Source: an uncultured Phycisphaerales bacterium (GTDB lineage Bacteria; Planctomycetota; B15-G4; CAYZWU01). Taken from it: DNA of 64,000 nucleotides. Of the stretch, positions 17,449-52,264 are shown piece after piece; positions within the stretch are counted from its first letter, which is position 1; each line of letters starts with the position of its first letter. The notes beneath the pieces are model-generated. The model had not been told where the DNA came from. It ran no database searches and was given only the letters and a program-made list of their open reading frames with translations. The translations under genes and the position numbers were made by a program. Location: NCBI GenBank assembly GCA_964482235.1, contig CAYZWU010000007.1, forward strand, positions 3,053 through 67,052, in the 5' to 3' direction.

Positions 17449-18483
17449 CTAGCATGCCGAGGCGTCGATGTCGATATCGAATCGCTGCCCGGAACGGTGA
17501 ATCTGATAGGCGAGGCCCGCGATCATGGCCGCGTTGTCCGTGGCCAGATCCCGGGGCGACAGTAAAAGCTGAATTCCGCGTGAGGCGGCCAGCGAACGGA
17601 CCGAGTCGCGGAGAGCCGTGTTGGCAGCCACGCCGCCGCCCACGGCCACGGCGCGGGCTTCGAACCGCTCCGCCGCCTGGAACAGCCGCGTGGTGAGGAC
17701 TTCGACCACCGCGGCCTGGAACGAGGCAGCCATCGCCGCAACGGCATGACTGTCCTCCCTGTCGAAAGGGGGCTCCTCCCGCTGGGCCCGTTTCTTCTTC
17801 GAGACCATGCCGCGGCACCGGTAGAGCACCGCGGTCTTGAGCCCGCTGAAGGAGAAGTCGAGCGACTTCCTCCCCGAAGGCATCGGCCGGGGGAGGGCGT
17901 AGGTCCCGGGATCCGCCCCCCTCGCCGCCTTGTCGATGGCCGGCCCACCCGGGTAGCCGAGCCCCAGGATCGAGGCCACCTTGTCGAAGGCCTCGCCCGC
18001 CGCATCGTCGATCGTCCGGCCCTCGAGCTCGAGATCGAGGGGCGATCGGACGCGGTAGAGGCTCGTGTGGCCGCCCGATACGACGAGCGCGGCCAGGGGG
18101 TAGGGAGGCTCGTCCACCGTCATCAGGCAGGCGTAGGCGTGCGCTTCCACATGGTTGACCGGGATCAGGGGAATCCCGAGAGCGAGGGCCAGCCCCTTGG
18201 CTGCCGACATTCCCACCAGGAGGCTGCCGATCAGCCCAGGCCTCTGCGTCACGGCGACGGCATCGATGTCACTCATGCGGCAACCGGCCGATTCCACCGC
18301 TTTGCCGATGACAGGCCTGATCGTTTCCAGGTGGGACCGGCTCGCCACCTCGGGGACCACGCCGCCGAAAGGGGCATGGAGAGCAATCTGCGTCGCAACC
18401 TCGCTGGAGAGGATCTTGCGCCCCGACTGCACCACCGCGGCGGCGCATTCATCGCATGACGTCTCGATGCCGAGTATGATCAT
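17449..18483 (-). CDS. tsaD: tRNA N6-adenosine threonylcarbamoyltransferase TsaD
   Basis: MIILGIETSCDECAAAV...GGVAANTALR. 344 aa. Confidence 0.9.
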   Translation of the reverse strand: MIILGIETSCDECAAAVVQSGRKILSSEVATQIALHAPFGGVVPEVASRSHLETIRPVIGKAVESAGCRMSDIDAVAVTQRPGLIGSLLVGMSAAKGLALALGIPLIPVNHVEAHAYACLMTVDEPPYPLAALVVSGGHTSLYRVRSPLDLELEGRTIDDAAGEAFDKVASILGLGYPGGPAIDKAARGADPGTYALPRPMPSGRKSLDFSFSGLKTAVLYRCRGMVSKKKRAQREEPPFDREDSHAVAAMAASFQAAVVEVLTTRLFQAAERFEARAVAVGGGVAANTALRDSVRSLAASRGIQLLLSPRDLATDNAAMIAGLAYQIHRSGQRFDIDIDASAC

Positions 18484-18594
18484 GAGAAGCTCTCCAGGGG
18501 AGGCGTGACGGAAAGGACAGGGACGGCACGGTCTTGGCGCGGCTGTGCTCTGTCCCTGTCCCGCGGGTGCGATCCAATCAGGCTCTCGGCTCTT

Positions 18595-19074
18595 CTACTT
18601 CTTCCTGGTTTTCTTTTTTATTGTCTTGGCGGCGGCCTTCTTTCTGGGGGCGCACTTGCTCTTCTTCTTCTTGATCGCCAGGTTCTTCAGGATGAGAAGG
18701 GCTTTTTTCGTGTTCGTGACCTGGAGGTAGAACCTGTCCTCGGCGCCGCCCGAACCGCCGGTGCTGCCATATCCGTATTCCACGTTGAGCTTGGCCTTGG
18801 CCAGGGCGCGGGAGATCTCGTCCAGCTTGCCGGGTTTGTTCTCTGCCGGAATCTCGAGGACGTTGGTCTCGATCACGAGGATCCCCCGGTCCCCCAGAGC
18901 GTGCAGAGCCTTCTGCGGCGTATCGACGATCATCCTCAGCACACCATGATCCACGGTGCCAAAGATGTTGAAGGCGAGGATGTTGACATGGATCTCCTTC
19001 ATGACCTCGCAGATCCTGGCCATCATTCCAGGCTGGTTTTCGAGAAAAACCGTCAACTGCTTCTGAATATTCAT
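18595..19074 (-). CDS. ACT-domain protein with a Lys-rich basic C-terminal tail
   Basis: About 130 aa of tandem ACT-like fold, followed by KKKKSKCAPRKKAAAKTIKKKTRKK. It lies in an operon with ctpA and tsaD. Confidence 0.55.
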   Translation of the reverse strand: MNIQKQLTVFLENQPGMMARICEVMKEIHVNILAFNIFGTVDHGVLRMIVDTPQKALHALGDRGILVIETNVLEIPAENKPGKLDEISRALAKAKLNVEYGYGSTGGSGGAEDRFYLQVTNTKKALLILKNLAIKKKKSKCAPRKKAAAKTIKKKTRKK

Positions 19075-19212
19075 TTCTTTCCTTCCAGTTACTGTTCAGG
19101 TTCCGAGCAGGCTGCACCTGAGAAATCTCGAATGGATGCCCGGGCACATTATGAGATAGATGCAGAGGAAAAAAAAGGGTTTATGATCTGCGGGCGGAAA
19201 GGGATCTCCCGG

Positions 19213-20568
19213 TCATCTGTTTCCCGGAAGGGGAGAGAAGATCTTCTTGCCCTCGAGGATCCGGACTGCGGCCAGGAACTGCCCGTCGCTGCAGAGCCGC
19301 CCTGCCTCCTCGCCCAGAACCTCGTCGAAATAAGCCTCCGGCACCTCCCGCGATCTGAGAAACCGCTTCAGGCTGTCGCTGGATCTACGGGACAGGTTCC
19401 AGGTGAAATCGGGTTCCAGGCCGCTCCCTCCCGTCAACTGCCGGTCGCGCCTTGTCTCGATGCAGCGGCCGAGAGGGGTGTAATACCTGGCCGTGGTCAG
19501 CTTGATGATCACCTCTCCGCCGAAATCCCTGCTGAATGCCGACTGCACCACGCCCTTGCCGAAAGTCCTCTCGCCGACGAGAACGGCGCGTTCGTGGTCC
19601 TGCAGGGTGCCGGCCAGGACCTCGGCCGCCGACGCGGTGTAGCGGCTGACGAGAAGGACGAGGGGGATGTCCGGAAAGAGATGGCGCTTGCTCGTGGCGG
19701 TGAAGGTGCGGTTCGAGTCGGCGCCGCGGCCGCGGGTGCGGAGGAGGATCCCATCCCCCTGGAACAGGTTGGCCGTGTGCAGGGCGCTGTTCAGAAGGCC
19801 GCCCTTGTTGAACCTGAGGTCGAGGATCAGGGAGCGGGCTCCCTCCTGCTTCAGGCGCCTCACGGCGCGGATCACCTCGTTCGCCGTCCCGTTGTTGAAG
19901 CTCCTGATCCTCATGTAGGCGATTCCCAGCTCGTCATTCACGAGGCAGGGATTGAATGCAGTGTTCTCGGCGACTCTCTTCCTCTCGATCTCGAGGCGGC
20001 GTCGGCTGCCGTTGTCGGATCCGTTGTCGCCGGGGGCGACGACGAGAATGCAGATCGAATCGGGCGGGCCGCGCAGGAGGTCCTCCACCTCGGTCCGGGT
20101 GCGGCCGGCCGCGGCGATGCCGTCGATCTCGATGATCCTGTCCCCGGGTTTCAGCCCCGCCTTTTCCGCCGGCGAGTAGGGGAAAGGGTAGAGCACCAGT
20201 GCCATGCTGCTGTGCGGGTCGAGCTCCAGGCCGATGCCGACGTATTCTCCCTTGGTGTCTTCGTGATAGCGCTGCTCCTCCTCGGGGCTGTAGAAGGTGC
20301 AGTAGGTGTCGAGGGAGGAGACCATGCCGTCCAGCGCGGAGTAGACGAGGCTCCGGTCGTCCACCTCGTCCACGTAGCAGTCGAGGATCAGGGAGCGGGC
20401 CTCGTTGATCCAGCGAAGCTCTTCCGGCGTCAGGGTGCGCTGGCCCTTTTCCCGGCGCGGCTCGTCGCTGCCCTCGGCCGTTCCCGTGAGGGCCGAGGGG
20501 CCGAGAAATAGCGCGGCAAAGGGGAAAAAGCCTGCGAGAAGTATGAGAAAATGGATTTTTCTTTTCAT
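19213..20568 (-). CDS. ctpA: carboxyl-terminal processing protease, S41 family, with PDZ domain
   Basis: Signal peptide, a PDZ domain (GDRIIEIDGI) and an S41 catalytic region (RFNKGGLL...GERTFGKG). 451 aa. Confidence 0.85.
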   Translation of the reverse strand: MKRKIHFLILLAGFFPFAALFLGPSALTGTAEGSDEPRREKGQRTLTPEELRWINEARSLILDCYVDEVDDRSLVYSALDGMVSSLDTYCTFYSPEEEQRYHEDTKGEYVGIGLELDPHSSMALVLYPFPYSPAEKAGLKPGDRIIEIDGIAAAGRTRTEVEDLLRGPPDSICILVVAPGDNGSDNGSRRRLEIERKRVAENTAFNPCLVNDELGIAYMRIRSFNNGTANEVIRAVRRLKQEGARSLILDLRFNKGGLLNSALHTANLFQGDGILLRTRGRGADSNRTFTATSKRHLFPDIPLVLLVSRYTASAAEVLAGTLQDHERAVLVGERTFGKGVVQSAFSRDFGGEVIIKLTTARYYTPLGRCIETRRDRQLTGGSGLEPDFTWNLSRRSSDSLKRFLRSREVPEAYFDEVLGEEAGRLCSDGQFLAAVRILEGKKIFSPLPGNR

Positions 20569-20815
20569 GGCGGCCGCCCGGCTCCTTTTACTGGCTGGAT
20601 GACGGTGCGTGTCGGCCCGGTTGTTGCTCTCGAGCAGCGTACCATTTGCCGCGTCTCGTTGGAAGGGGGCGATGAGAGCTGAGTTAATTCGTTCAAATGC
20701 CGATAGTTAGAAGATCGGCGAAAAGAGGCGAACAGTCAGGAATATCCAAGCCCTTCGAACCGTCAGAGATTTGTCGAATTGTAATTGAAGCGAACACTCT
20801 CTCTGGATCGTTGAG

Positions 20816-22840
20816 ATGAAGAAAAAAGTCAAACGTGTGCTGATCACCATGATTTTTGCGGTAGCTCTGCTCTACTTCGCATTCACGCAGCTGTTCTTCT
20901 CCCCTTTCGAGGACGATTTCGGACCGATCGAGTACATCGTCCCCAGGGAGGTCGATTTCTTCTGCGGGAAGGTCAACCTGTTCGACGATTTCCGCTCCTT
21001 TCCGGAGCCGGAGTTCTATCCCGACCTGAAGGCCTGCGCGGAATGGCGTTCCTTTCGGGGCACGGAGCTTTACTCGAGCTTCTGCGGGCAGAGGGATCCG
21101 GATATCGTCTTCCAGGAGATCCGCAACCAGATCAAGGACCTGCCGATCGATTTCATCAACGATATCGTGGGGCGGGAGGTGGCCGTTGCGGGCAGCTTCA
21201 GCGACGACGGGGCGATGGAGCGGTTTCTGCTCTTCTTCAGGGGATCGCTGAAGACCAAGTTCTTCTTCGAGCTGCTCACCTGGGACTTCGTGCGCGGGAT
21301 GGCGGAGGATCCCAACTTCGCGGAGAGCACGGTCTTCCATGACGAGAGAAAGTTCTACATGCTGACCCTGGTCGACGGGCAGTCCTTCTACATGAAGCGG
21401 TGCGCCGACCTGATCGTCGTGGGGAACGACGAGAAGATGATGGAGGAGATGTCCGAGCTGGTCGAGATGGGGTCGGAGTCGATCGACCTGAGCCTCGGCG
21501 GGGCGCAGGCCTACATCGAGAAGGTTCTCGTCCATGCGCCGGAGGAGGGGGAGGAGCTCGATAGCGAGCGGGACCTCCTGAACTTCCACGTCAATCTCGA
21601 GAGCCTGAGGGAGCGCGTTTCCCTGGACGACGAGATGAAGGCCAACGACACCGATTTCTCGATCATGACCATGGTGGACGTGTTTCAGCCCGAGTTCTTC
21701 CGGGATCTGACCGGGATCCTGGATCTCGGCGAGACGGTGGGCCTGCAGGCGCGGGCGGAGCTCGACAGGGATGCGGTCCTGGCATCGAAGACGGGCTTCT
21801 TCGACAGGGAGAACTTCGGCGTCAAGAAGAGCATGCGCCGGCTGGCAGGGATGCTGCCTGCCAACGTCTTTCTTGCCGGATGCGCCAGGCTGCGCCCTCT
21901 CGATTTCCTCACCATCCTCGAAGAGAACATGGATCCCGATTACCGGAAGCTTCTGAACGATCTGATCCGCGAGTCGAGCGGCCACGAGAAGTGGAAGGTG
22001 ACGGCGACGTGGGAGCTGATCGAGTTTCTCGACGCCACCTTCGGCGAGATGGTCTACTTCGCTCTCAGGCCGCGGCAGGAGGACAAGACGATCAGCGATT
22101 TCGTGCAGCCGCTGCCGATCTTCGCCCTGATATTCGAGGTCGAGGACCATGAGAAGCTCGCGATCCTCGAGGATGTGGTCAAGAGGCTGCGGAACAACAG
22201 CCGCAGCGAGTTCGACATGTACAAGTTCAAGAACGACTACTACGGCTGCATGATCAAGACGATCACCCCGCCCGAGGTGGATGATGTGGAGCATTTCGCC
22301 TTCACCACCATGGGGAGCAACTACTTCGTTCTCACCACGGCCGACGATTTCATCATGGAGATCGTCAAGACCTGGGCCACGTCGAAGCACAGCCTGGCCG
22401 ACACCCGCGGCTTCCGGAATGCCGAGGAATACCTGGGCAAGCACGGCAACCTGGGCCTCTACATGGAGATGGACGGCATGCGGCAGACGCTGGACAACTA
22501 CGCCACCTACTGGGGGCAGGTCCAGACGAGCTGGACGGAGGAGGAGGCCAGGGCCCAGCGGAAGAAGGTGCGCAGCGTGGTGATGCGGCGCGAGGGATTT
22601 CGCGGCGGGAGGAACGGGGATCTCTCCGAGGCGGACGAGAAGCGGCTGGTCGAGCTGGTGGACGAGGAGATGCTCAAGATCCGCGACAGGAGGATCCAGA
22701 CCGAGGGCCCGAAGTATGCGGCCGAGTTCCGCGAGAAGTGCGCCTGGATCGACCTCTTCAAAAGCGTCATGCTCAGCATGACGGTGAAGAAGAGGAGCAT
22801 GGACATCGACATCGGGCTGGAGACGCTGCTTTCGAGGTGA
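20816..22840 (+). CDS. large membrane-anchored protein of unknown function
   Basis: 674 aa with an N-terminal TM anchor. Its amino-acid composition looks protein-like (rich in K/E/D/F/Y). The overlapping antisense 730-aa ORF is Arg/Leu/Pro-rich and I judge it spurious. Confidence 0.55.
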   Translation: MKKKVKRVLITMIFAVALLYFAFTQLFFSPFEDDFGPIEYIVPREVDFFCGKVNLFDDFRSFPEPEFYPDLKACAEWRSFRGTELYSSFCGQRDPDIVFQEIRNQIKDLPIDFINDIVGREVAVAGSFSDDGAMERFLLFFRGSLKTKFFFELLTWDFVRGMAEDPNFAESTVFHDERKFYMLTLVDGQSFYMKRCADLIVVGNDEKMMEEMSELVEMGSESIDLSLGGAQAYIEKVLVHAPEEGEELDSERDLLNFHVNLESLRERVSLDDEMKANDTDFSIMTMVDVFQPEFFRDLTGILDLGETVGLQARAELDRDAVLASKTGFFDRENFGVKKSMRRLAGMLPANVFLAGCARLRPLDFLTILEENMDPDYRKLLNDLIRESSGHEKWKVTATWELIEFLDATFGEMVYFALRPRQEDKTISDFVQPLPIFALIFEVEDHEKLAILEDVVKRLRNNSRSEFDMYKFKNDYYGCMIKTITPPEVDDVEHFAFTTMGSNYFVLTTADDFIMEIVKTWATSKHSLADTRGFRNAEEYLGKHGNLGLYMEMDGMRQTLDNYATYWGQVQTSWTEEEARAQRKKVRSVVMRREGFRGGRNGDLSEADEKRLVELVDEEMLKIRDRRIQTEGPKYAAEFREKCAWIDLFKSVMLSMTVKKRSMDIDIGLETLLSR

Positions 22841-42418: not shown

Positions 42419-43789
42419 ATGACCGGACGGAAGAGAAAAGGGATCGGAAATGGGAAAGAACTGAGCCGCCGGGCTTTCCTGGGGCAAGCCGCCGCAGGCG
42501 CGACGCTGTTCACCATCGTGCCGCGCCACGTTCTCGGCGGACCGGGATACGTCGCGCCGAGCGACAAGCTCGACATCGCCTGCATCGGCGTGGGCGGCAA
42601 GGGGCGTTCCGACGCGGACGGCGTGAGCAGCGAGAACATCGTGGCGCTCTGCGACGTGGACGAGAGGCGTGCAGCGGGCGCGTTCAACCGTTATCCCGGC
42701 GCAGCGCGGTACAGCGACTTCAGGAAGATGCTCGATGAGATGAAGAACATCGACGCCGTCACCGTGTCCACCCCGGACCACACCCACGCGGTGATCGCCA
42801 TGACGGCCATCAGGATGGGCAAGCACGTCTACTGCCAGAAGCCGCTGACGCACTCCGTCTTCGAGGCGCGCTCCCTTGCCGTGGAGGCGCGGCGGCAGGG
42901 GGTGGCCACGCAGATGGGGAACCAGGGGCACGCTTCGGAAGAGACGCGCCGGCTTTGCGAGCTGATCCAGGGCGGGGCGATCGGCCCGGTCCGCGAGGTT
43001 CACTCCTGGACGGACAGGCCGTCGCGCGGGCTCTTCGCCGAGTACTGGCCCCAGGGTGTGGGCCGGCCGGACGACCGGCCGCCCGTGCCGGATCACCTTC
43101 ACTGGGATCTCTGGCTCGGCCCGGCGCCCGAGCGGCCCTACCACCCGGCGTACGCTCCCTTCAGGTGGCGCGGGTGGTGGGATTTCGGAACAGGGGCGCT
43201 GGGCGACATCGGCTGCCATTCCCTCGATCCGATCTTCCGGGCCCTCGATCTCCATGCGCCGCTCAGCTTCCAGGCCACCTCCACGCGGGTGAACAGCGAG
43301 ACCTATCCACTGGCGTCGATCGTGGAGCATCGCTTCGGTCCGAGGGGGGACAGGCCGCCCGTGACCCTGACCTGGTACGACGGCGGACTGAAGCCGCCCC
43401 GTCCGCCGGAGCTCGAGCCGGGTTTCGCCATGGGCGACGGCGGAACCCTCTACGTGGGTGACAAGGGCAAGATGCTGGGGCTTCACATCTTTCCCGAATC
43501 GCGGCGGGCCGGGTTCGAGGAGCCGCCCAGGATATTGCCGCGCTCGATCGGTCACTACAGGGAGTGGATCGAAGCGTGCAAGGGAGGCGAGGCGGCGGGA
43601 TCGAACTTCGACATCTCCGGACCGCTGACAGAGACGGTTCTTTTGGGCAACGTCGCCCTGCGGCCCGAGCTGAGAGAAAAGCTGACGCAGCAGGCGCTCG
43701 AGTGGGATTGGGAGAACCTGAAGATCACCAACCTCCCCGAGGCGAACGACTTTCTCCATCGTCCCTACAGGGAGGGGTGGACGTTGTGA
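42419..43789 (+). CDS. Gfo/Idh/MocA-family oxidoreductase with Tat signal (GH109-like)
   Basis: Tat motif [12 protein letters not shown]. Rossmann fold [12 protein letters not shown]. 456 aa, comparable to GH109-like periplasmic dehydrogenases. Confidence 0.8.
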
Positions 43790-43792
43790 TTT

Positions 43793-45070
43793 TCAGTATG
43801 TCAGGATCATCAGGTTCGTGAGGCGCGACCCCGGAGCCTGGGGCCCCACGAGTGCCTGAAAGGGATGTCTGTCGCCGGCAAGCCACGATGCCGGCACCGT
43901 TCCGGGATGGATCAGCACACCGTTCGCGGGAATGACGCCGAGATCATAGATCCCGAGCAGAGGTGACAGGAGATGGAAGTCGCCGTATGGCGTGACGAGC
44001 GGCGGATCCTGAACACCTGAACCGTGAGCGAGCCTCACGGGAGCCATGCCCGGCTGTCCGACCACCTTGATCTCGATCGATCCGCCCGGCGCCACGTCGC
44101 CGGAGTGGTAGAGGTGGTAGAAGAACTCGTCGGCTCCGATGTCGATCCTGTCGCCGGCGATCCGCGGGTCGCCTTCGTAGTCGAGTTCAGGGACATCGGG
44201 CGGCGTGTCGATGCCTGTGTCCCGGCAGGGCGAGTCGAAGGTCAGGTGAAAATCGAAATGCGGCGGATTGAAAACGTCCACGAAGAGCGGATCGGCGTCG
44301 ATGTTGCCCGGGCCCTGCCATCCTCCCTTCACGTTGCAGTGGCTCACCACGACCTGGTTGATGAGTGAGATGAAGAGGTCCGGGTCCGACGGAGCGTAGT
44401 TGTCCCGCACGATCGTGTTGAAGATCTTGATGTTCGGCAGCTGCAAGAAGATGACATAGATCCCACCGCCTGAAACGGAAGCCGTATTGAGCGTCACCGT
44501 GTTGTTGACGATTCTCGTCGAGGGCTCCGGGTCGACGCATCCGATGCCGCCGCCGTAGTCCGCCGTGTTCGCGGTGACGATGTTGTTGATGATCTTGGAG
44601 GAGCTGTAGTAGCCGCAGAAGATCCCACCGCCGCAATCGGCCTTGTTGGCCATCACGACGTTGTTGCGGATTGTGGGGGTGCTCCACCAGGCCGAGTAGA
44701 TTCCGCCGCCGCAGAGACCGCCGTACTTCCTGTCGTATGTTCCCGTCCCGTTCCTGATGCAGAATCCCTCGAACACCGAACCCTGGGCCTTCTCGCTGTC
44801 AAAGGTGACCACGCTCCCGTTGCCGTTGCCGTCGATCACGGTGTAGGCGGGGCCGAGCTCGCTTTTCAGGATCACGGGCCTGTCATAGCTGTCATCGATG
44901 TTTTCCACGTAGGTCCCCGGCCTGACGATGATCGTGTCTCCGGCAGCGGCGGCGTCGATGGCGCCCTGGATCGTCGTATGGTCGTCGGGGACGTAGATCG
45001 TCCTCCCCTGGGAGATTGCGGCGAGAAGAAGGCAGGCGGACAAGGTGCAACACAGTTTTTTGCTGAACAT
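43793..45070 (-). CDS. secreted parallel beta-helix repeat protein with the conserved C-terminal domain; paralogue of 37215..38723
   Basis: The N-terminal region aligns with 37215..38723 (TIYVPDDHTTIQGAIDAAAAGDTIIVRPGTYVENID). Beta-helix rungs are present. The C-terminus GDVAPGG...WLAGDRHPFQAL...LTNLMILTY matches the shared domain. Confidence 0.7.
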   Translation of the reverse strand: MFSKKLCCTLSACLLLAAISQGRTIYVPDDHTTIQGAIDAAAAGDTIIVRPGTYVENIDDSYDRPVILKSELGPAYTVIDGNGNGSVVTFDSEKAQGSVFEGFCIRNGTGTYDRKYGGLCGGGIYSAWWSTPTIRNNVVMANKADCGGGIFCGYYSSSKIINNIVTANTADYGGGIGCVDPEPSTRIVNNTVTLNTASVSGGGIYVIFLQLPNIKIFNTIVRDNYAPSDPDLFISLINQVVVSHCNVKGGWQGPGNIDADPLFVDVFNPPHFDFHLTFDSPCRDTGIDTPPDVPELDYEGDPRIAGDRIDIGADEFFYHLYHSGDVAPGGSIEIKVVGQPGMAPVRLAHGSGVQDPPLVTPYGDFHLLSPLLGIYDLGVIPANGVLIHPGTVPASWLAGDRHPFQALVGPQAPGSRLTNLMILTY

Positions 45071-45195: not shown

Positions 45196-47055
45196 TCAGG
45201 CGCTGCCCAGGCTCACCTCGACCATCTGCTCCTGATCGCCGTGCTGATACCGGATCTTGACCACGTCGCCCGGCTTGTGCCTGCGGAGCACGTTGCGGAA
45301 TCCGCTTCTTCCCTCGATCGGCTCGTCGTCGATGGCCAGGAGGATATCCCCCTTCAACAGCCCGGCCTTCTCCGCGCCGCCGCCCGGAATGATCCTGCTG
45401 ATCCTGAGGCCGGGCTTGCCTTCCTCGGCCGACTCGACCATCACGCCGAAGGTGGCTCGCGGTCCGCGCCGGCGCCCCGTTTCCTGGAAAGTGGGGCGTG
45501 CGTTGCTGTTGGCAACGATGAGTGCCGTCTTGAAGGCGACATTCAGGACGTCGACAGCACCTGTCACGTTGCAGTTCTCCAGGTCGTCGTCAGGCGTGTG
45601 GTACGCCTTGTGGATCCCGCTGAAGAAGAAGAGGACGGGGATCTTCTTCGAGAGGAAGGAGGACTGGTCCGATCCGCCGAAGCCGCCTTCGCTGTGCCGC
45701 CAGGTCACCGGCGACTCGAACTCGGCCTCTTTCAGGATCGCTTCCCACTCCTTCGCCGTTCCGGTGCCCATGATGCTGCACTTCTTGTCCGTCACGTGGG
45801 CGATCATGTCGAGGTTGATCATCGCCACCGTCTTCTCCAGGGGGAAGAATGGATTGCTCACGTAGTGGCGCGAGCCGAGCAGGCCCTTCTCCTCCGCATC
45901 GTAGAGCTGGAAGAGGATCGACCTCCTGGGCCGCACGTCGGCCTGGACGAACGCTTCGGCCAGCTCGATCACGCCGATGGACCCCGACCCGTTGTCATCG
46001 GCTCCGTTGTGGACTTCTCCCTTTCGCTTGGGGGTCCTGCTGCCGTAGGCACCCAGGCCGAGGTGGTCGTAATGGGCGCCGATCACGAGCACCTCGTTCT
46101 TCAGAACGGGATCGGAGCCTTCGAGCAAGCCGATAACGTTGCGGGCCTTGGCGAGATATCCCACCTCGGCATGGAGATCGATCCTCGGACCGCTGATCTC
46201 CAGCGAGGCCGGCTTGCCGGTCGTGTCGATCTTCTTCTGGAGATCGGCGAGCGAGGTGCCGGCATGGCCGAGAATCTCTTTCGCCAGGCCGCCCCGGACG
46301 TGGATCATCGGGATCTTCGAGTTGCTGGATGCCCGCGTGGAGAGATCGCCCAGGGGATCGCGGTCCGGGTCGTGATGAATGGGGCCGTTCACGAAGAGGA
46401 CGGCTTTGGCGCCGTGCTTTCCGGCATTCTCGATCTTCGTGGTGAAGTAGGAGTGTCTTGTGCCCGACGCTCCTTTCCAGGCCGACGTCGTATCCTTTTC
46501 CTGGGGCTCATGCCTGAGGATCAGCACGATCTTGTCCTGTGCGTCGATCCCCTCATAGTCATCGTACTCGAATTCCGGCGCAGTGATCCCGTACCCCGCG
46601 AAAACGACCTCCGTATCCTTGAGGTCCACCTTGGAGCAACCGCCCAGGAGAGACCATTCTTTTCCCGCCGCGAAGCTCTTTCCGTCGATCGTCAGGCAGT
46701 GCCCGGGCAGCAGGCCTCTTCTGCCTCCTCTCTCGAAGGTCTGGAAGTAGGAGGGCTCTCCGTCGATCGGATCCCCGAGGGGCTTCAGCCCGAGCTTCGA
46801 AAACTCGCCGGCCGCAAAGTCGCCGGCCTCGATGCTGCCGGCGGTTCCCGGCTCGCGGCCTCCCCTCGAGTCGGCCGAGAACCAGCCCAGCTCGCCGCTG
46901 TACTCTTTTGCATCCAGCGTGGAGAGGGCTTTCTGTACCTCGGGTTTCTCGAGGAGAGAGGAGAGCTCTTCTCCCAGCAAGCCTGTCGAGACGAACGGGG
47001 CGATGAGGAAGAAGACAACGCACAGCGAAATGCGGATTTTTCCTGTTATCTGCAT
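45196..47055 (-). CDS. M28-family aminopeptidase with PA domain and C-terminal PDZ domain
   Basis: Signal peptide present. M28 zinc-ligand motifs (HYDHLG, DDNGSGS, EEKGLLGS, HTPDD). The C-terminal PDZ domain carries GLRISRIIPGGGAEKAGLLKGDILLAID. Confidence 0.8.
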   Translation of the reverse strand: MQITGKIRISLCVVFFLIAPFVSTGLLGEELSSLLEKPEVQKALSTLDAKEYSGELGWFSADSRGGREPGTAGSIEAGDFAAGEFSKLGLKPLGDPIDGEPSYFQTFERGGRRGLLPGHCLTIDGKSFAAGKEWSLLGGCSKVDLKDTEVVFAGYGITAPEFEYDDYEGIDAQDKIVLILRHEPQEKDTTSAWKGASGTRHSYFTTKIENAGKHGAKAVLFVNGPIHHDPDRDPLGDLSTRASSNSKIPMIHVRGGLAKEILGHAGTSLADLQKKIDTTGKPASLEISGPRIDLHAEVGYLAKARNVIGLLEGSDPVLKNEVLVIGAHYDHLGLGAYGSRTPKRKGEVHNGADDNGSGSIGVIELAEAFVQADVRPRRSILFQLYDAEEKGLLGSRHYVSNPFFPLEKTVAMINLDMIAHVTDKKCSIMGTGTAKEWEAILKEAEFESPVTWRHSEGGFGGSDQSSFLSKKIPVLFFFSGIHKAYHTPDDDLENCNVTGAVDVLNVAFKTALIVANSNARPTFQETGRRRGPRATFGVMVESAEEGKPGLRISRIIPGGGAEKAGLLKGDILLAIDDEPIEGRSGFRNVLRRHKPGDVVKIRYQHGDQEQMVEVSLGSA

Positions 47056-47184: not shown

Positions 47185-47388
47185 TCAGTGAGAGACCTTT
47201 GCCTTGGCCACTTTCATGCGGTCGAGCAGAGTTCTGCAGCGGTCGCAGAGGCCCTCGGTGCTCGAAGCCGGGTCATCTGCCAGGATTTCGAGCTCCCTGA
47301 TCGTCAGGCAGTTCTCGTTTCTTGGAACGATCAGTGAATCCTGTTGCGCCATCTTGCGCCTCTCTGCCATCAGCTCGTCAAGATCCAT
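47185..47388 (-). CDS. putative small anti-sigma factor (CxxC) cotranscribed with the ECF sigma
   Basis: 67 aa, immediately downstream of the ECF sigma gene. Contains CDRC. The assignment rests only on gene context. Confidence 0.35.
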   Translation of the reverse strand: MDLDELMAERRKMAQQDSLIVPRNENCLTIRELEILADDPASSTEGLCDRCRTLLDRMKVAKAKVSH

Positions 47389-47406
47389 GGTGAGGCCCTT
47401 TCCCGG

Positions 47407-48033
47407 TTAGGTGTTTTTCTTGTATCCTTGATTTTGCAGACAGGCCGCCACCGCTTCCCGGCCGTTCTTGAGAATATTCTGAACCGTTCTGATCTTCATT
47501 TCAAAAAGTTTTGCTATCTCCGTCGTGCTCAGCTCGAGCAGATGCCGGAGGTGGAACATCTTCCTTTCGCGGCCGGACAAGTTTCCGATGCAGTGATCGA
47601 TGGCCTCCTTCAGGACGACCTTGTCGTTCCATGCCGAGCGTCTCTCCCTGTTCACGCGGCGGCAATTCCGCTGCTGGACCGCGGTACAGGATGAGTAGCT
47701 CATCAGGTTCATCGAGCCGTCGGTCCAAGACATCGCTCTGCATCGCCGCTCGGACTTTCGTTTCTCGTCGATGTTCAGGTTCCTGCAGACCGTCTTGATC
47801 CAGCCAAGAACGGCATGTTCTCCTTTGCCGAATAGGCAGTTCTCCTTTTTCTTAATAACGCGCATGAAGACATCCTGCGCAAAATCTTCCAGCTCGTGAC
47901 CAAAAATACCGTCCAGGATCAGGTACTTCTTGATCTGGCGCTCGATCTCCGGCAGAGCCTTTTCGAAGGAAGCCTCCGCTTCGATGCCGTCGGCGAAATT
48001 CTTGAACGCCTTCCTTCCTGATCGGTCATCCAC
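47407..48033 (-). CDS. ECF-family RNA polymerase sigma factor
   Basis: Sigma-70 region 2 (FAQDVFMRVIKK...WIKTVCRNLNID) and region 4 (LSGRERKMFHLRHLLELSTTEIAKLFEMKIRTVQNILKNGREAV). Confidence 0.8.
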   Translation of the reverse strand: MDDRSGRKAFKNFADGIEAEASFEKALPEIERQIKKYLILDGIFGHELEDFAQDVFMRVIKKKENCLFGKGEHAVLGWIKTVCRNLNIDEKRKSERRCRAMSWTDGSMNLMSYSSCTAVQQRNCRRVNRERRSAWNDKVVLKEAIDHCIGNLSGRERKMFHLRHLLELSTTEIAKLFEMKIRTVQNILKNGREAVAACLQNQGYKKNT

Positions 48034-48252
48034 TGGTTGTTCTTCCCCTTATTAAGATATGTATTCGTTTTTCATCTTTTTTTACGCATTCCGAAGGCTC
48101 GTACGTTGTTTTTTCAGTCGTTCGGTCAATTCCTCGTTCGTTGATTTTGCAGTCCCTATCGAAGCGGCCCCCGAGACACCTTCCTTCAGGTTTTCGTCCC
48201 GATGGTGCTGGACAAGCTGATTTGGTTTCGAAGCGGCATTATTTGGAGGATC

Positions 48253-48741
48253 ATGATGAAATTCGCAATCGTTCTGTTGCTTGTTGCCTTCACCTTTCCC
48301 GTTGTCGGTTTTTCCACCACACCCGAATCCGGATCGGATCAAGGAGCCGTTCCGGACCTGTCGCAGGAGAGTCAGTACTCCGCTCCACCCGCGTACGCGC
48401 GCTGCGGATTGGCCGTTTATCTGTCTGCCGGTGTGATCGGAGACACCTTGACCGTCACGGCGGAAGGAGAGCCCGGCCCGGAGTGCTACTGGATCAGACT
48501 CGAGGTGGAGGTCAAGATGCGCCAGGCCGGCACCCAGACCTGGATCACTCAAACGGGTTACATCGGGCCGGGAGACTACTGGGCAAATTCCTTTAACATA
48601 ACCGGTTATGATCGCTTCTATGCCAAGGCGAAGTCCGTGGATACGCCGGATGGTCCCATGCCGTCCATTTGTTCTGATCACGGCAGTTCGTGTCTCTCGA
48701 CCAATCACAGGGTGTATACGACTCTTGAAGAGAATCTCTGA
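48253..48741 (+). CDS. small secreted protein of unknown function
   Basis: Signal peptide MMKFAIVLLLVAFTFPVVGFS. Cys-containing and Tyr/Trp-rich, about 160 aa. Confidence 0.45.
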   Translation: MMKFAIVLLLVAFTFPVVGFSTTPESGSDQGAVPDLSQESQYSAPPAYARCGLAVYLSAGVIGDTLTVTAEGEPGPECYWIRLEVEVKMRQAGTQTWITQTGYIGPGDYWANSFNITGYDRFYAKAKSVDTPDGPMPSICSDHGSSCLSTNHRVYTTLEENL

Positions 48742-48795
48742 TCGACGACAGCTCACTGTCCCTTTATCAGGGAATCGCCGCCGCCGGTGCTTGCG

Positions 48796-51700
48796 TTACT
48801 TGCGCCTGGAGAGAAGTACGGTTCCTAGATCTCGAATCTGTCCTTCAGCCATGGGGTAGATTTCGGATCGGTGCAGCAGCGATCCCTTGAGCGCGATCTC
48901 GAAGTATAAATCGACTGCGGGAAGGTATGCCATTTCCAGCTTGCTTCCGATTAAGCCGGAGTATTGCATCAGAGTCCTGCCGCTGTCCGCTTCCTTGACA
49001 GAAACGGTCACGCGGCCATCCTCCTCGAGCAGAGACCGGTTCATTTCCTCGGAGTAGAGCACGGCTCTGAGCTTGTTGTCCGGAAGCCGGATATCGAGCC
49101 TTGTTCGAGTCTGCGGATCAGCTGGGATGACGAGATTATCGAGGAACAGGCTGTAAGAAGATTGCCGCCTGGAACGATCCCTTACGTTGAGAACGGTTTT
49201 CCACAATCCCGGCCGAACCCCCTCGACAGCGAACGAACCGTTGCTGTCCGTCCTGCAGTTGTGGTTGCCGTGTTGATCGGGATCACCCGAGGGATTATGC
49301 CTCGTCAGGCTCAGCCAGGCTCCGGCGATGGGAGCGCCATGGCTCAGCGTGATGGAACCGCTGACAGCGGTCACGCCGTGGTTCACGGCGAATTCGTCCC
49401 TGTTGATCTTGAGGCGGGCGAGCTCGCCGGCCTTGATCTCGACGATTCGCTCCACCGGGACGGAGGAGGAAAGGGAGAGGGACAGCTTCCAGGTGCCGGC
49501 CGCCAGCTTGATCGAATAGTCGAGGCTTCCATCAGACCGGATCATTCCCTCCAGGATGCGGAGGGTGAGGGGGGGATTGTCCGTCCCTGAACCGACACGA
49601 GTCGCGGATCCGGCGAGACGTCGATGATCTCCTCTCGCGAAGCCGCGACCGGAAAGAGCAGCCGTTCCTGTTTGTGGTATCTTCAAGCGAATGCCGTCGA
49701 GCTGCTGGCCGCTGTTCAACGCGACCCGCCGCATATGGAATTGGTCCGCCTCGCTCTTGTTCTCGAAATCAATCACCATATCGCGTGCGTACGAGTCGCC
49801 GTAATAGGTGAGTTCGTAATCCCCTTCCTCCAGGCCTCTCAGGCAGAACCGTCCCCGTGAGTCCACCCGGCACTCCAGGCGCCCAAAGATGGCGTCCCTG
49901 TTCAAGGGATAGGCCATGACGAAGCCGGAGGGAACGGGTTTGCCCGTCGTATCATGGACAACCGTTCCGCCGATGCAGCCGGGCGGTTCGTGGATGTTCC
50001 TGTCGAGGAGCTGAGATCCGCTTTCAGGAACGACGATCGGTCCGATCCTGGTCTGGAATCCCTCCGAAGGGGAGAGCAGGGCAATCCAGTATTTCTCCCC
50101 CCGAAGGAGCTTCCGGAACTCGAATCGGCCTTCCTCGTCGCTCGTTGCGGCGATGTCGGCTCCTCCATGCGAGAGGGGCGAGGCAAAGAGCCTGGCATGG
50201 GGAAATGCCCTGCCCGTCCTTTCGAACAGGGTGCCCTTCCAGGCGACATGCTCCTTCGAGGGGCCGAAGTCGATTTCCCGGTCCCCATCGAGAAGGGTGA
50301 CTTTTTTCTCTCCTTCGTGAAGCGGCCTGCCGTGGCGTCCTCCTCGGACACGGCCGTGACGAAGAACTCGGAGTGCGGCGGGGCGGGCGGCAGCCGAAAG
50401 CGCCCCTCCCGGTCGGTTTTCACGATCCGCGCCAGGGGAATGCCGGCGCCATTCTGCTTGATCGATATGCCCGCGGCCGGCAGCCCCTGATCGTCAAGGG
50501 CCGTGCCGAAGACGCAGAAGCCGGGTTTCAGCACGATTTCGACCGATGAGAGGTCCGCCGTCGTCATCACGCTGCCTTCGGCAAAGAGAGGGTGCACGGC
50601 TACGATCGTGGCGTTGTCGGAGAGCAGGCCTTGGATGATGAAACGCCCCTTCTCGTCGGACCGGCTCCAGATCCCTCCTCCGGGAAGATCCGACTCGGCA
50701 CGGTGCAGGTTGGTCCTTCCCTTGACCGCAATCAGGGCTCCGGCAATCGGCCTGCCGGCAATGTCGACCACCAGGCCTTCCCGGCTGTATCCCGGATCGA
50801 GGCGGAATTCGAGGACCGTCGGCTCGACATCATCGGTGAAGTGATAGAGCAGCCTCTGCGGGATGTGCCGCTGCGAGCTGATCGTGATCAGGTACCGGCC
50901 TGGCCGGCCCCGTTCCAGGAAAAACGAGACGGTTCCGTCTTCGCTACGGACCCTCTTTCGCAGAAAGGGCTCTTGAAAGTTGTCGTGGAGGCTTTCGCCG
51001 ACACCGACGGATATACCGTAGGACCGAACGGATTCGCCTGACACCAGGTCCGTGGCCTTGATCGGAATCCTCGTCTCGCCGTGAGGAATGGGTTCCCTGT
51101 CGCCGTCCTTCCGTTCATCCGGCGAGTTGTCGAGGCTCGAGCCGGAACCGTCTGCGCCGGCTATCGAAACCGATGCAGCGGCCATGCCCGAGGTCCCGTC
51201 GCCTCCTGGGCCCGCGCCCTTCAGACCGTCGGGGCGGCTATCTAAGAAAAAGGACTGGAACGCCAGGAAGGCGGCAACAAGCAGAGTTCCGGCCACGGCA
51301 ACGCTCTTGCCGGAAAGAAGGGACGACGAAGCAGCCTTGGACAGGGTCGCTCCGGCGGCCGAAGTGGTGAGGGCTAGACCTCCAACCGGAGCGAGGGCCA
51401 TGACCCAGCTCTTCCTGCTTCCCTCGAACTTGTCGTCGAGGGCCCGCCGGAGCTGATCAAGGCCGCGCCGGAGCCATGACTTGACCGTTGTCACGGGGAC
51501 ATCCAGGCTTTTTGCGATCCTGCGCGGTGGCTGGTCGTCGTAAAACCTCATTATGATAATAGTTAGATATGGTTCCTTGAGTTCGAGGACGGCGTCCACA
51601 ACGGTCTGGCAGAGCGCTTGCCTCTCCGAGATCTCGTCGGTCGAGCGAACGGCGAACGACCTGGCCACCTCCTCTTCCCGTTTTCTCCGCCGGATCGAGG

Positions 51701-51899
51701 ACCGCTTCTCCATCCGGTCGAGGTTCTGCACCACGGTCTTGAGCCAGCCGTATGGAAATGAGTCTCCCTTCGGCGGTTTTTTGAGGAGTGTCAGGAAGGC
51801 CTTCTGGGTGATGTCGTCCACGTTGTTCTCGTCGAGAACAAGACGTCGTGCCAGGGAACGCACGAATTTGGAGTGTTCCTGTATCGCTTCGAGATTCAT
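48796..51899 (-). pseudogene. ECF sigma-factor domain fused in-frame to a hydrophobic/TM segment and CarboxypepD_reg-like beta-sandwich repeats; frameshifted at an A6 homopolymer (plus-strand T6 at 50307-50312)
   Basis: ORF 49902..51899 begins with complete sigma regions 2 and 4 (DDITQKAFLTLLKK...WLKTVVQNLDRMEKR...LKEPYLTIIIMRFYDDQPPRRIAKSLDVPVTTVKSWLRRGLDQL). It continues without a stop into VAVAGTLLVAAFLAFQSFF and then GRFRL/GTV.D..G.P..GA repeats. After the A-run the good protein sequence continues in the frame of ORF 48796..49917 (...KKVTLLDGDREIDFG...GTVVHDTTGKPVPSGFVMAYPLN...). The tail of ORF 49902..51899 after the A-run is Ser/Pro/Arg-rich junk. Confidence 0.6.
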
Positions 51900-51951
51900 C
51901 TCTGCCGCAAGATCAAGGTGTCGGAATTATTGCGTAATTTTTTGAAATACA

Positions 51952-52001
51952 AAAGGTTATGCGGTGCAAGGTTCAAGGTGTATGTTCGGTGCATAACCTT
52001 T
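51952..52001. repeat. 11-bp perfect inverted repeat (AAAGGTTATGC ... GCATAACCTTT) with a 28-nt spacer, in the region upstream of the sigma-fusion gene
   Basis: Read directly from the sequence. The spacer contains the CAAGGTtCAAGGT direct repeat. It is a candidate operator or RNA structure. Confidence 0.5.
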
Positions 52002-52264
52002 AACCAATAAAATGCCGCTGACTGAAAAACGAATGCACCCTTTTTGCGAGAAAATGAAAAAAGGAAAAAGAGCGATTTCACGTCCGATTCATCCTGATTC
52101 GAGAGCCTGATCGCTGGTGCTGCCTCCTCGAATCGGCTTGCCGGGATTCGCCGGAAAGTCTGTCCTGACATGATATCAGATTTATTTTTTTCGAGAAAGT
52201 CTGCATTCGATTTGGATTTACCGGCATTTTTTTGATGGAAGTTGTTTTTGCTCGGTAGGCGCTA

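Follow-up and report, generated by a model that had tools for sequence, protein, structure and literature searches.

Predicted membrane-tethered ECF sigma factor of a large family, interrupted by a one-base frameshift in an uncultured Phycisphaerales bacterium

We analyzed a 64,000-nucleotide stretch of DNA, hereafter the window, from an uncultured Phycisphaerales bacterium (contig CAYZWU010000007.1, positions 3,053 to 67,052). The subject of this work is an interrupted gene on its minus strand, at 48796..51899, whose product combines an extracytoplasmic function (ECF) sigma factor, a short linker, a predicted transmembrane (TM) helix, and an array of beta-sandwich domains. The gene is spread over two overlapping open reading frames (ORFs), 49902..51899 (minus strand; 665 aa) and 48796..49917 (minus strand; 373 aa). 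Its features are the following, where pLDDT is the predicted local distance difference test score of the AlphaFold2 model and MFE the minimum free energy of folding.

48796..51899, minus strand: the interrupted gene as a whole, encoding ECF sigma, linker, TM helix, and eight beta-sandwich domains; 1,034 aa after a −1 frame change.
51720..51884, minus strand: sigma-70 region 2, residues 6-60 (Pfam PF04542, Sigma70_r2, 29.9 bits, cut-off 24).
51447..51602, minus strand: sigma-70 region 4, residues 100-151 (PF08281, Sigma70_r4_2, 36.7 bits, cut-off 25.7; PF04545, 26.8 bits).
51366..51437, minus strand: conserved motif right after region 4, residues 155-178, DDKFEGSRKSWVMALAPVGGLALT (alignment of 99 fused family members; AlphaFold2 helix 162-173, low confidence).
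51246..51302, minus strand: single TM helix, residues 200-218 (hydropathy 2.04; AlphaFold2 helix 201-218; position relative to region 4 kept in about 100 relatives).
51087..51245, minus strand: disordered Gly/Ser/Asp-rich spacer on the predicted extracytoplasmic side, residues 219-271 (pLDDT below 50, no secondary structure).
50301..51077, minus strand: beta-sandwich domains 1-3, residues 275-533, frame 0 (AlphaFold2 strands, pLDDT mostly above 85; Pfam CarboxypepD_reg).
50301..50307, minus strand: frameshift site A_AAA_AAG, codons AAA (K532) and AAG (K533); plus-strand T6 at 50302-50307, the same in all six contigs read.
50251..50295, minus strand: 17-bp hairpin starting 5 nt past the heptamer (MFE over 50 nt, −21.2 kcal/mol).
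48796..50301, minus strand: final strand of domain 3 and beta-sandwich domains 4-8, residues 534-1034, frame −1; stop codon at 48796-48798.
49902..50300, minus strand: frame-0 read-through past the shift, ending at a stop after 132 non-homologous codons, which make up the tail of the annotated 665-aa ORF.

According to a three-frame translation, frame 0 is protein-like up to ...AGRFTKERKK, after which the protein continues in frame −1 as VTLLDGDREIDFG..., the switch occurring at GAG AGA AAA AAG|TC. On the minus strand the heptamer runs from 50307 to 50301 and its six A's from 50307 to 50302; the original prediction, made from the DNA sequence before this analysis, had placed the T6 tract 5 nt away, at 50307-50312. 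Insertion of one A, or a −1 slip, yields an unbroken protein of 1,034 aa, close to the total of about 1,040 aa anticipated for a run from sigma to TM segment without a stop and on through the second ORF. The predicted peptide across the −1 shift reads ...FTKERKKVTLLDGDR... Frame −1 is open over 566 codons, with a G+C content at third codon positions (GC3) of 0.69. Protein P0001 matches the repaired query over residues 1-540 only. The 665-aa and 373-aa gene calls in the JGI, ENA, and Logan data are one frameshifted gene.

Complete sigma regions 2 and 4 had been predicted in ORF 49902..51899, and both are confirmed by the Pfam scores listed above and by NCBIfam TIGR02937 (sigma70-ECF; 54.2 bits against a cut-off of 42.9). 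No match to sigma-70 region 3 was obtained in Pfam or NCBIfam. This domain content, with regions 2 and 4 scoring over the curated thresholds, assigns the N-terminal part to the ECF (group 4) branch of the sigma-70 family. The motif that follows region 4 has the consensus LD..hGGDR.aW(c)LALAPLAGLk among the 99 fused members aligned. It is succeeded by an Ala-rich spacer, the pattern G..M..K.K, and the TM helix, which commonly ends in W; the K-K pair preceding the helix is conserved across the fused family. In the same alignment this 25-aa motif is the sole conserved element of the linker, and it could act in docking, in inhibition, or in protease recognition. The only strong hydrophobic segment of the protein is VAVAGTLLVAAFLAFQSFF (residues 200-218), with a Kyte-Doolittle mean of 2.04 over 19 residues. 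Since basic residues precede this helix and an acidic spacer follows it, we infer an N-in/C-out topology by the positive-inside rule.

The linker between sigma region 4 and the TM helix is only about 45 residues long, too short to hold a classical anti-sigma domain (about 80-90 residues). No Pfam or NCBIfam match to the anti-sigma domains FecR, ZAS/zf-HC2, or RskA was found at E ≤ 0.1. The protein thus lacks the detectable anti-sigma domain between region 4 and the TM helix that characterizes sigma/anti-sigma hybrids of the IutY/ECF52 type, and the label "sigma/anti-sigma-like" first given to it is only loosely apt.

The AlphaFold2 model, computed from 25 homologs (mean pLDDT 78), comprises sigma helices over residues 3-157, a low-confidence helix at 162-173, the TM helix at 201-218, a disordered stretch at 219-271, and about eight beta-sandwich domains over 275-1030, with pLDDT mostly above 80. 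Pfam recognizes CarboxypepD_reg in five stretches (E 1.4e-30). In a Foldseek comparison with the PDB, only tandem immunoglobulin (Ig)-like arrays were matched (pilins, the Bacillus anthracis TIE protein, and macroglobulin MG domains), and no enzyme fold was. In the model, the K533/V534 frame change falls within beta-sandwich domain 3, in its last strand. The predicted union of an ECF sigma factor, a membrane segment, and CarboxypepD_reg-like repeats in one polypeptide therefore holds, and intact single-ORF relatives exist.

Relatives are numerous. An exhaustive search covering 1.84 billion cluster representatives (clusters at 50% identity) returned 1,069 of them at E ≤ 1e-30. A large number of the top matches align end to end with the query (residues ~1-1030); these proteins are 1,020-1,200 aa long and share 27-33% identity with it. 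Architecture was classed for the best 149 of the 1,069 representatives. Sigma domain and extension occur together in 100 of them, whose hydrophobic peak comes 40-55 residues beyond sigma region 4. The extension occurs without sigma in 39, about 30 of which are proteins of 830-945 aa in which an N-terminal TM anchor is followed by an acidic spacer and by the beta-sandwich array of the fused proteins. A word-indexed search added about 25 proteins of 850-1,440 aa carrying sigma and CarboxypepD_reg, several of them named sigma factors of Planctomycetota metagenome-assembled genomes (MAGs). A two-sequence alignment scan of the GTDB representative genomes returned one distant Planctomycetota MAG only, with 35% identity in the sigma domain, and a scan of metagenome contigs distant sigma domains only, with 24-27% identity. 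No conserved gene neighborhood was found among distant family members. The window protein is an ECF sigma factor with a TM-containing C-terminal extension: both parts lie in the same ORF, no stop codon intervenes between region 4 and the TM helix, and the layout recurs in 100 of the best 149 relatives. This count contradicts the earlier view of the fusion as an uncommon arrangement. The family is large, its nearest named relatives are from Planctomycetota MAGs, and no member appears to have been studied experimentally; judged from these sequences, the sigma-TM-array design is normal and abundant in Planctomycetota-like genomes.

The stand-alone CarboxypepD_reg arrays, such as P0113 (L022 5001-7760) and P0132 (L021 2259-5030), align to query residues ~200-1030 and share the N-terminal TM anchor and the acidic spacer with the window protein. 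They differ from it by the lack of a sigma domain, with only 3-15 cytoplasmic residues, and no sigma gene lies near either of these two loci. Because array genes of this kind exist without a nearby sigma gene, the ectodomain is best regarded as an independent module to which a sigma domain was joined. This agrees with the proposal that the heterogeneous C-terminal extensions of planctomycetal ECFs arose by insertion of duplicated sigma2-sigma4 cassettes (PMC7671368).

ECFs of Planctomycetes with long and diverse C-terminal extensions have already been described (PMC7671368), as have TM-containing ECF extensions in IutY and in ECF48/52/53 (PMC8999054). The ECF57/"ECF01-Gob" and duplicated clusters of Planctomycetes (Pinto & da Fonseca 2020) resemble the present family in being probably from the same phylum and in having many paralogs per genome. 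Like it, planctomycetal long-extension ECFs show heterogeneous Pfam content and no conserved genomic context (PMC7671368, PMC7826278). Compared by description, ECF57 differs in its WD40-like repeats and in two conserved Cys residues linking sigma regions 2 and 4 (PMC8999054), whereas the window family carries CarboxypepD_reg-type domains and no conserved Cys pair. We obtained no WD40 match. Over the first ~200 residues of 99 aligned members (sigma regions plus linker), Cys reaches 15% in a single column, position 166, which follows region 4; regions 2 and 4 themselves contain no conserved Cys pair.

IutY of Pseudomonas putida, an ECF243 hybrid, has the same order of parts in one polypeptide, in which the N-terminal ECF sigma is followed by a TM segment and by a sensor part in the periplasm. 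Regulated intramembrane proteolysis via Prc and RseP activates it, and its truncated form is constitutively active (PMC8999054). Unlike the window protein, IutY has a full FecR-type anti-sigma domain between sigma and TM and a TonB-dependent receptor as partner; the window protein has no detectable anti-sigma domain, a linker of about 45 aa, and an eight-domain beta-sandwich ectodomain. The actinobacterial ECF48, ECF52, and ECF53 (e.g., SCO4117) also carry a C-terminal extension with one or two TM helices and an extracytoplasmic domain, and proteolytic activation has been predicted for them (PMC8999054, PMC5826349). These groups differ from the window protein by a zinc-finger (ZAS-like) domain before the TM segment, by a carbohydrate-binding domain in ECF52, and by their phylum.

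The exact 665-aa ORF is present on 10 contigs from JGI, Logan, ENA, and NCBI, of which six were read: JGI 3300009314, 3300009320, and 3300013118, Logan SRR8062346, and ENA ERZ23498983 and ERZ23499048. They come from six samples or runs and, in all, four data providers, and are 99.9-100% identical to the window. All six have A6 and read GGAGAGAAAAAAGTCACC at the site. Elsewhere they show 0-4 single-nucleotide polymorphisms (SNPs) each relative to the window, four of the six differing by 1-4. Homopolymer indels are the commonest assembly error, and one added A restores the full-length ORF, so that a sequencing or assembly error in a genome with A7 and an intact gene had to be considered, as the original prediction had done. 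The SNPs indicate that the contigs are independent consensus sequences, not copies of a single one, which makes a random homopolymer error very unlikely. Furthermore, no near-identical intact protein was found among ~15 billion proteins, the best intact match reaching 46-47% identity, and no strain with A7 in the metagenome-contig scan. We regard an error as extremely improbable: the one-base frameshift is genuine and not an assembly artifact.

The same contigs bear on a second possibility, also raised at the outset as a slippage-based switch, namely a phase-variable contingency locus in which slipped-strand mispairing would toggle between A7 (on) and A6 (off). A lesion inside a homopolymer of a surface-sensing gene would suit such a switch. 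However, at 6-7 nt the tract is short for slippage to be frequent, its length does not vary among the six consensus sequences, the L002 ortholog described below has no A tract at all, and a third species bears a different frameshift. We give phase variation hardly any credence.

The same-species contigs (at least 99.9% identical) hold 8 SNPs in total, four downstream of the shift and three of those nonsynonymous, too few for a ratio of nonsynonymous to synonymous substitution rates (dN/dS); the next relative, about 75% identical in DNA, is saturated for this measure. Three of the four SNPs between contig L011 and the window cluster within 170 nt after the frameshift (49518-49687), and two are nonsynonymous in the −1 frame. 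This cluster could reflect relaxed constraint or contig-end noise.

Two related species have orthologs in a syntenic position. Contig L002, with ~75-78% DNA identity, shares with the window the order HisKA kinase, fused sigma, small secreted protein, ECF sigma, 68-aa protein, and M28-PDZ peptidase. Its ortholog, P0002, is a single 1,045-aa ORF with 46-47% identity to the repaired 1,034-aa protein, end to end and at 100% coverage, and is among the relatives with the same fusion that the original prediction had proposed to look for. The two proteins align without a gap across the shift site, RFTAECRKIESLDGD against RFTKERKKVTLLDGD, where the L002 DNA reads AGG AAG ATC, with neither slippery heptamer nor hairpin. 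In a third syntenic species, represented by the same sequence in two independent samples (L019 6001-9040; L020 795-3834), the gene is split into 644 and 346 aa by a change from frame 0 to +1 near codon 630, at GAT TTC AGG. This lesion lies ~100 codons beyond that of the window and has no motif of a slippery or recoding type. Past it, the frame is intact over 380 codons and aligns with residues 641-1030 at 27% identity. The L019 split is due to an ectodomain frameshift, with no stop and restart separating sigma from the TM helix, and orthologs with separate sigma and repeat genes were not found.

Of the three orthologs, one is thus intact, and the lesions of the other two are different and independent, which favors recent mutational truncation over programmed recoding. 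The sequences bear the signature of ordinary mutational decay, or of a tolerated truncation, in a multi-copy and non-essential family. L002 also encodes a second sigma-TM-CarboxypepD_reg paralog, of 1,046 aa and also with PDZ domains (18172-21312, minus strand). At the syntenic position the window is contiguous (43789-43802) and lacks such a gene.

The anatomy of the site nevertheless recalls programmed −1 ribosomal frameshifting of the dnaX type, which would be lineage-specific here and would set a fixed ratio of the 1,034-aa sensor-sigma to the 665-aa truncated form. The heptamer A_AAA_AAG stands in the right phase and direction for an X_XXY_YYZ site. It is followed, after 5 nt, by a stable structure of −21.2 kcal/mol (p 0.03-0.05), which ranks in the top 3-5% of 50-nt windows in the sequence; 2.5% of synonymous recodings of the same peptide fold as well. 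Heptamer and hairpin are both absent from the intact L002 ortholog, whose equivalent stretch, at −13.8, equals the background mean. In addition, A6 is invariant in the six contigs and the 501 downstream codons are intact. In Escherichia coli dnaX, the heptamer A_AAA_AAG is accompanied by a hairpin 5-6 nt downstream and by a Shine-Dalgarno (SD)-like stimulator 10 nt upstream, a stop codon in frame −1 comes straight after the shift, and the arrangement is conserved across related species. The window has the identical heptamer and a hairpin at similar spacing. It differs from dnaX in that the shift would be needed to read on and not to terminate, and in that the site is not conserved, L002 having a plain ORF and L019 an unrelated +1-type lesion. 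Moreover, the SD-like AAGGAG of the window lies 2 nt upstream of the heptamer, not 10-14 nt, and, as known from dnaX and prfB, a 2-nt SD spacing favors +1, not −1, shifts.

Any A7→A6 deletion has a probability of ~1/3 of landing in the slippery phase, and the joint chance of phase and hairpin is ~1-2%, assessed post hoc. The frame-0 product would break a beta-strand and end in 132 nonsense residues. An in-phase A_AAA_AAG is also found in two other long minus-strand ORFs of the window, at 18619 and 17102 (GC3 0.78 and 0.68, respectively). As known from E. coli, the heptamer alone may still permit a low level of spontaneous −1 read-through. Taken together, these data make programmed frameshifting an unlikely explanation, if one to be kept in mind and the next in rank after plain mutation. 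Two other routes to the downstream frame were rejected: transcriptional slippage, for which A6 is too short, and internal re-initiation past the shift, since inspection of the sequence revealed no in-frame start codon with a well-spaced SD just after it.

Neither of the two independent frameshifts affects sigma domain or TM helix, and each leaves three or more ectodomain domains in place. This raises the question of an adaptive truncation, in which loss of the distal ectodomain would deregulate the tethered sigma and a functional 665-aa form would have been selected independently in two lineages; truncated IutY is indeed active without signal (PMC8999054). On the other hand, recency explains the intact downstream ORFs of both lineages equally well, and a nonsense tail joined to a broken domain would probably cause degradation. 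We consider selection for the truncated form improbable.

The probable interpretation, in our opinion, is that the gene encodes a tethered ECF sigma of a large family and has undergone a genuine frameshift, most likely a recent mutation truncating the ectodomain, which leaves either a pseudogene or a truncated, possibly deregulated sigma factor. The architecture, the size of the family, the reality of the frameshift, and the intact ortholog are its observed basis. The intact protein would constitute a one-polypeptide transmembrane signaling device, made of sigma, a linker of ~45 residues, a TM helix, a spacer, and about eight Ig-like domains of the CarboxypepD_reg/prealbumin type on the outside. 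The cytoplasmic sigma domain would be held at the membrane via the short conserved linker, while the Ig-like array would face the periplasm or the cell surface and bind a ligand. By analogy with IutY and ECF48/52/53 (PMC8999054), a signal would most likely lead to trimming of the ectodomain and intramembrane cleavage, freeing an active sigma; alternatively, sigma may act while tethered. In this population one base is missing from the last strand of domain 3, where A7 would keep the frame and the tract has A6, most likely through a recent mutation. The 665-aa product, minus five domains, would either be degraded or be deregulated like truncated IutY.

Several observations weigh against this interpretation. 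The site has the canonical anatomy of bacterial −1 frameshifting, in that an in-phase A_AAA_AAG is followed, after a 5-nt spacer, by a strong hairpin, which the intact ortholog lacks. The 501 downstream codons show no further lesion in any contig, which implies that the mutation is very recent or that the region is still translated. Under plain decay it is somewhat surprising that two of three orthologs are intact apart from their frameshift. Finally, proteolytic release is proposed by analogy only: the protein has no anti-sigma domain, and the neighborhoods of distant members share no conserved site-1 or site-2 protease. As these neighborhoods are not conserved, neither a partner protease nor a target operon can be named.

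Three further features flank the gene.

47407..48033, minus strand: stand-alone ECF sigma, 208 aa (Pfam, NCBIfam; syntenic in L002 and L019).
47185..47388, minus strand: conserved 67-aa Cys protein downstream of the stand-alone sigma, with 58% (L002) and 39% (L019) identity; C27, C48, and C51 conserved (Cys48-x2-Cys51).
51952..52001, no strand assigned: perfect inverted repeat ahead of the start codon, its 11-bp arms, AAAGGTTATGC/GCATAACCTTT at 51952-51962 and 51991-52001, being separated by 28 nt.

A conventional ECF sigma/anti-sigma pair had been predicted at 47185..48033. The sigma factor is indeed encoded there, at 47407-48033, whereas the anti-sigma part is unproven: the 67-aa protein has no match in Pfam or NCBIfam and no TM segment, and is possibly a soluble anti-sigma. 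The inverted repeat is present as originally predicted. Its core, AGGTTA/TAACCT, is kept in L002 and poorly kept in L019. The upstream alignment of the three species contains conserved blocks only, with no recognizable ECF-type promoter. In the same region, two copies of a 9-nt direct repeat, TCAAGGTGT, precede the start codon at a distance of 60 nt from each other (51913-51921 and 51973-51981). The divergent promoter region, which is AT-rich and also serves the HisKA kinase gene, contains a 61-nt imperfect (70%) inverted repeat (51998-52058/52181-52241). Some of the JGI and ENA contigs have a gene call for a 91-aa ORF (51896-52171, minus strand) that overlaps the start codon of the sigma gene (ATGA). 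It is probably not coding, since its alignment with L002 shows long indels in the AT-rich region.

Downstream of the gene, a conserved frame of 179 aa with an N-terminal hydrophobic leader (48202-48741, plus strand) shares 46% identity with L002 and 34% with L019; the overlapping minus-strand ORF 48082-48756 is probably spurious. Further downstream and in the same orientation as the interrupted gene, 45196-47055 (minus strand) encodes a secreted PA-M28 peptidase with a C-terminal PDZ domain. This M28-PDZ peptidase was considered as a dedicated protease for the tethered sigma and rejected: it is syntenic in L002 and absent among the genes called in L019, and the link would be only a guess.

As it stands, the locus is mainly an annotation point, and the frameshift site would be important only if recoding were demonstrated. 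Recoding would then be used to tune a transmembrane sigma factor, setting the ratio of its full-length to its ectodomain-truncated form. The family extends well beyond this locus, at least 100 clusters (50% identity) combining a sigma domain, the 25-aa motif, a single TM helix, and an Ig-like array with no anti-sigma domain. The mechanistic question that it poses is how a sigma factor tethered so near the membrane stays inactive or gets released.

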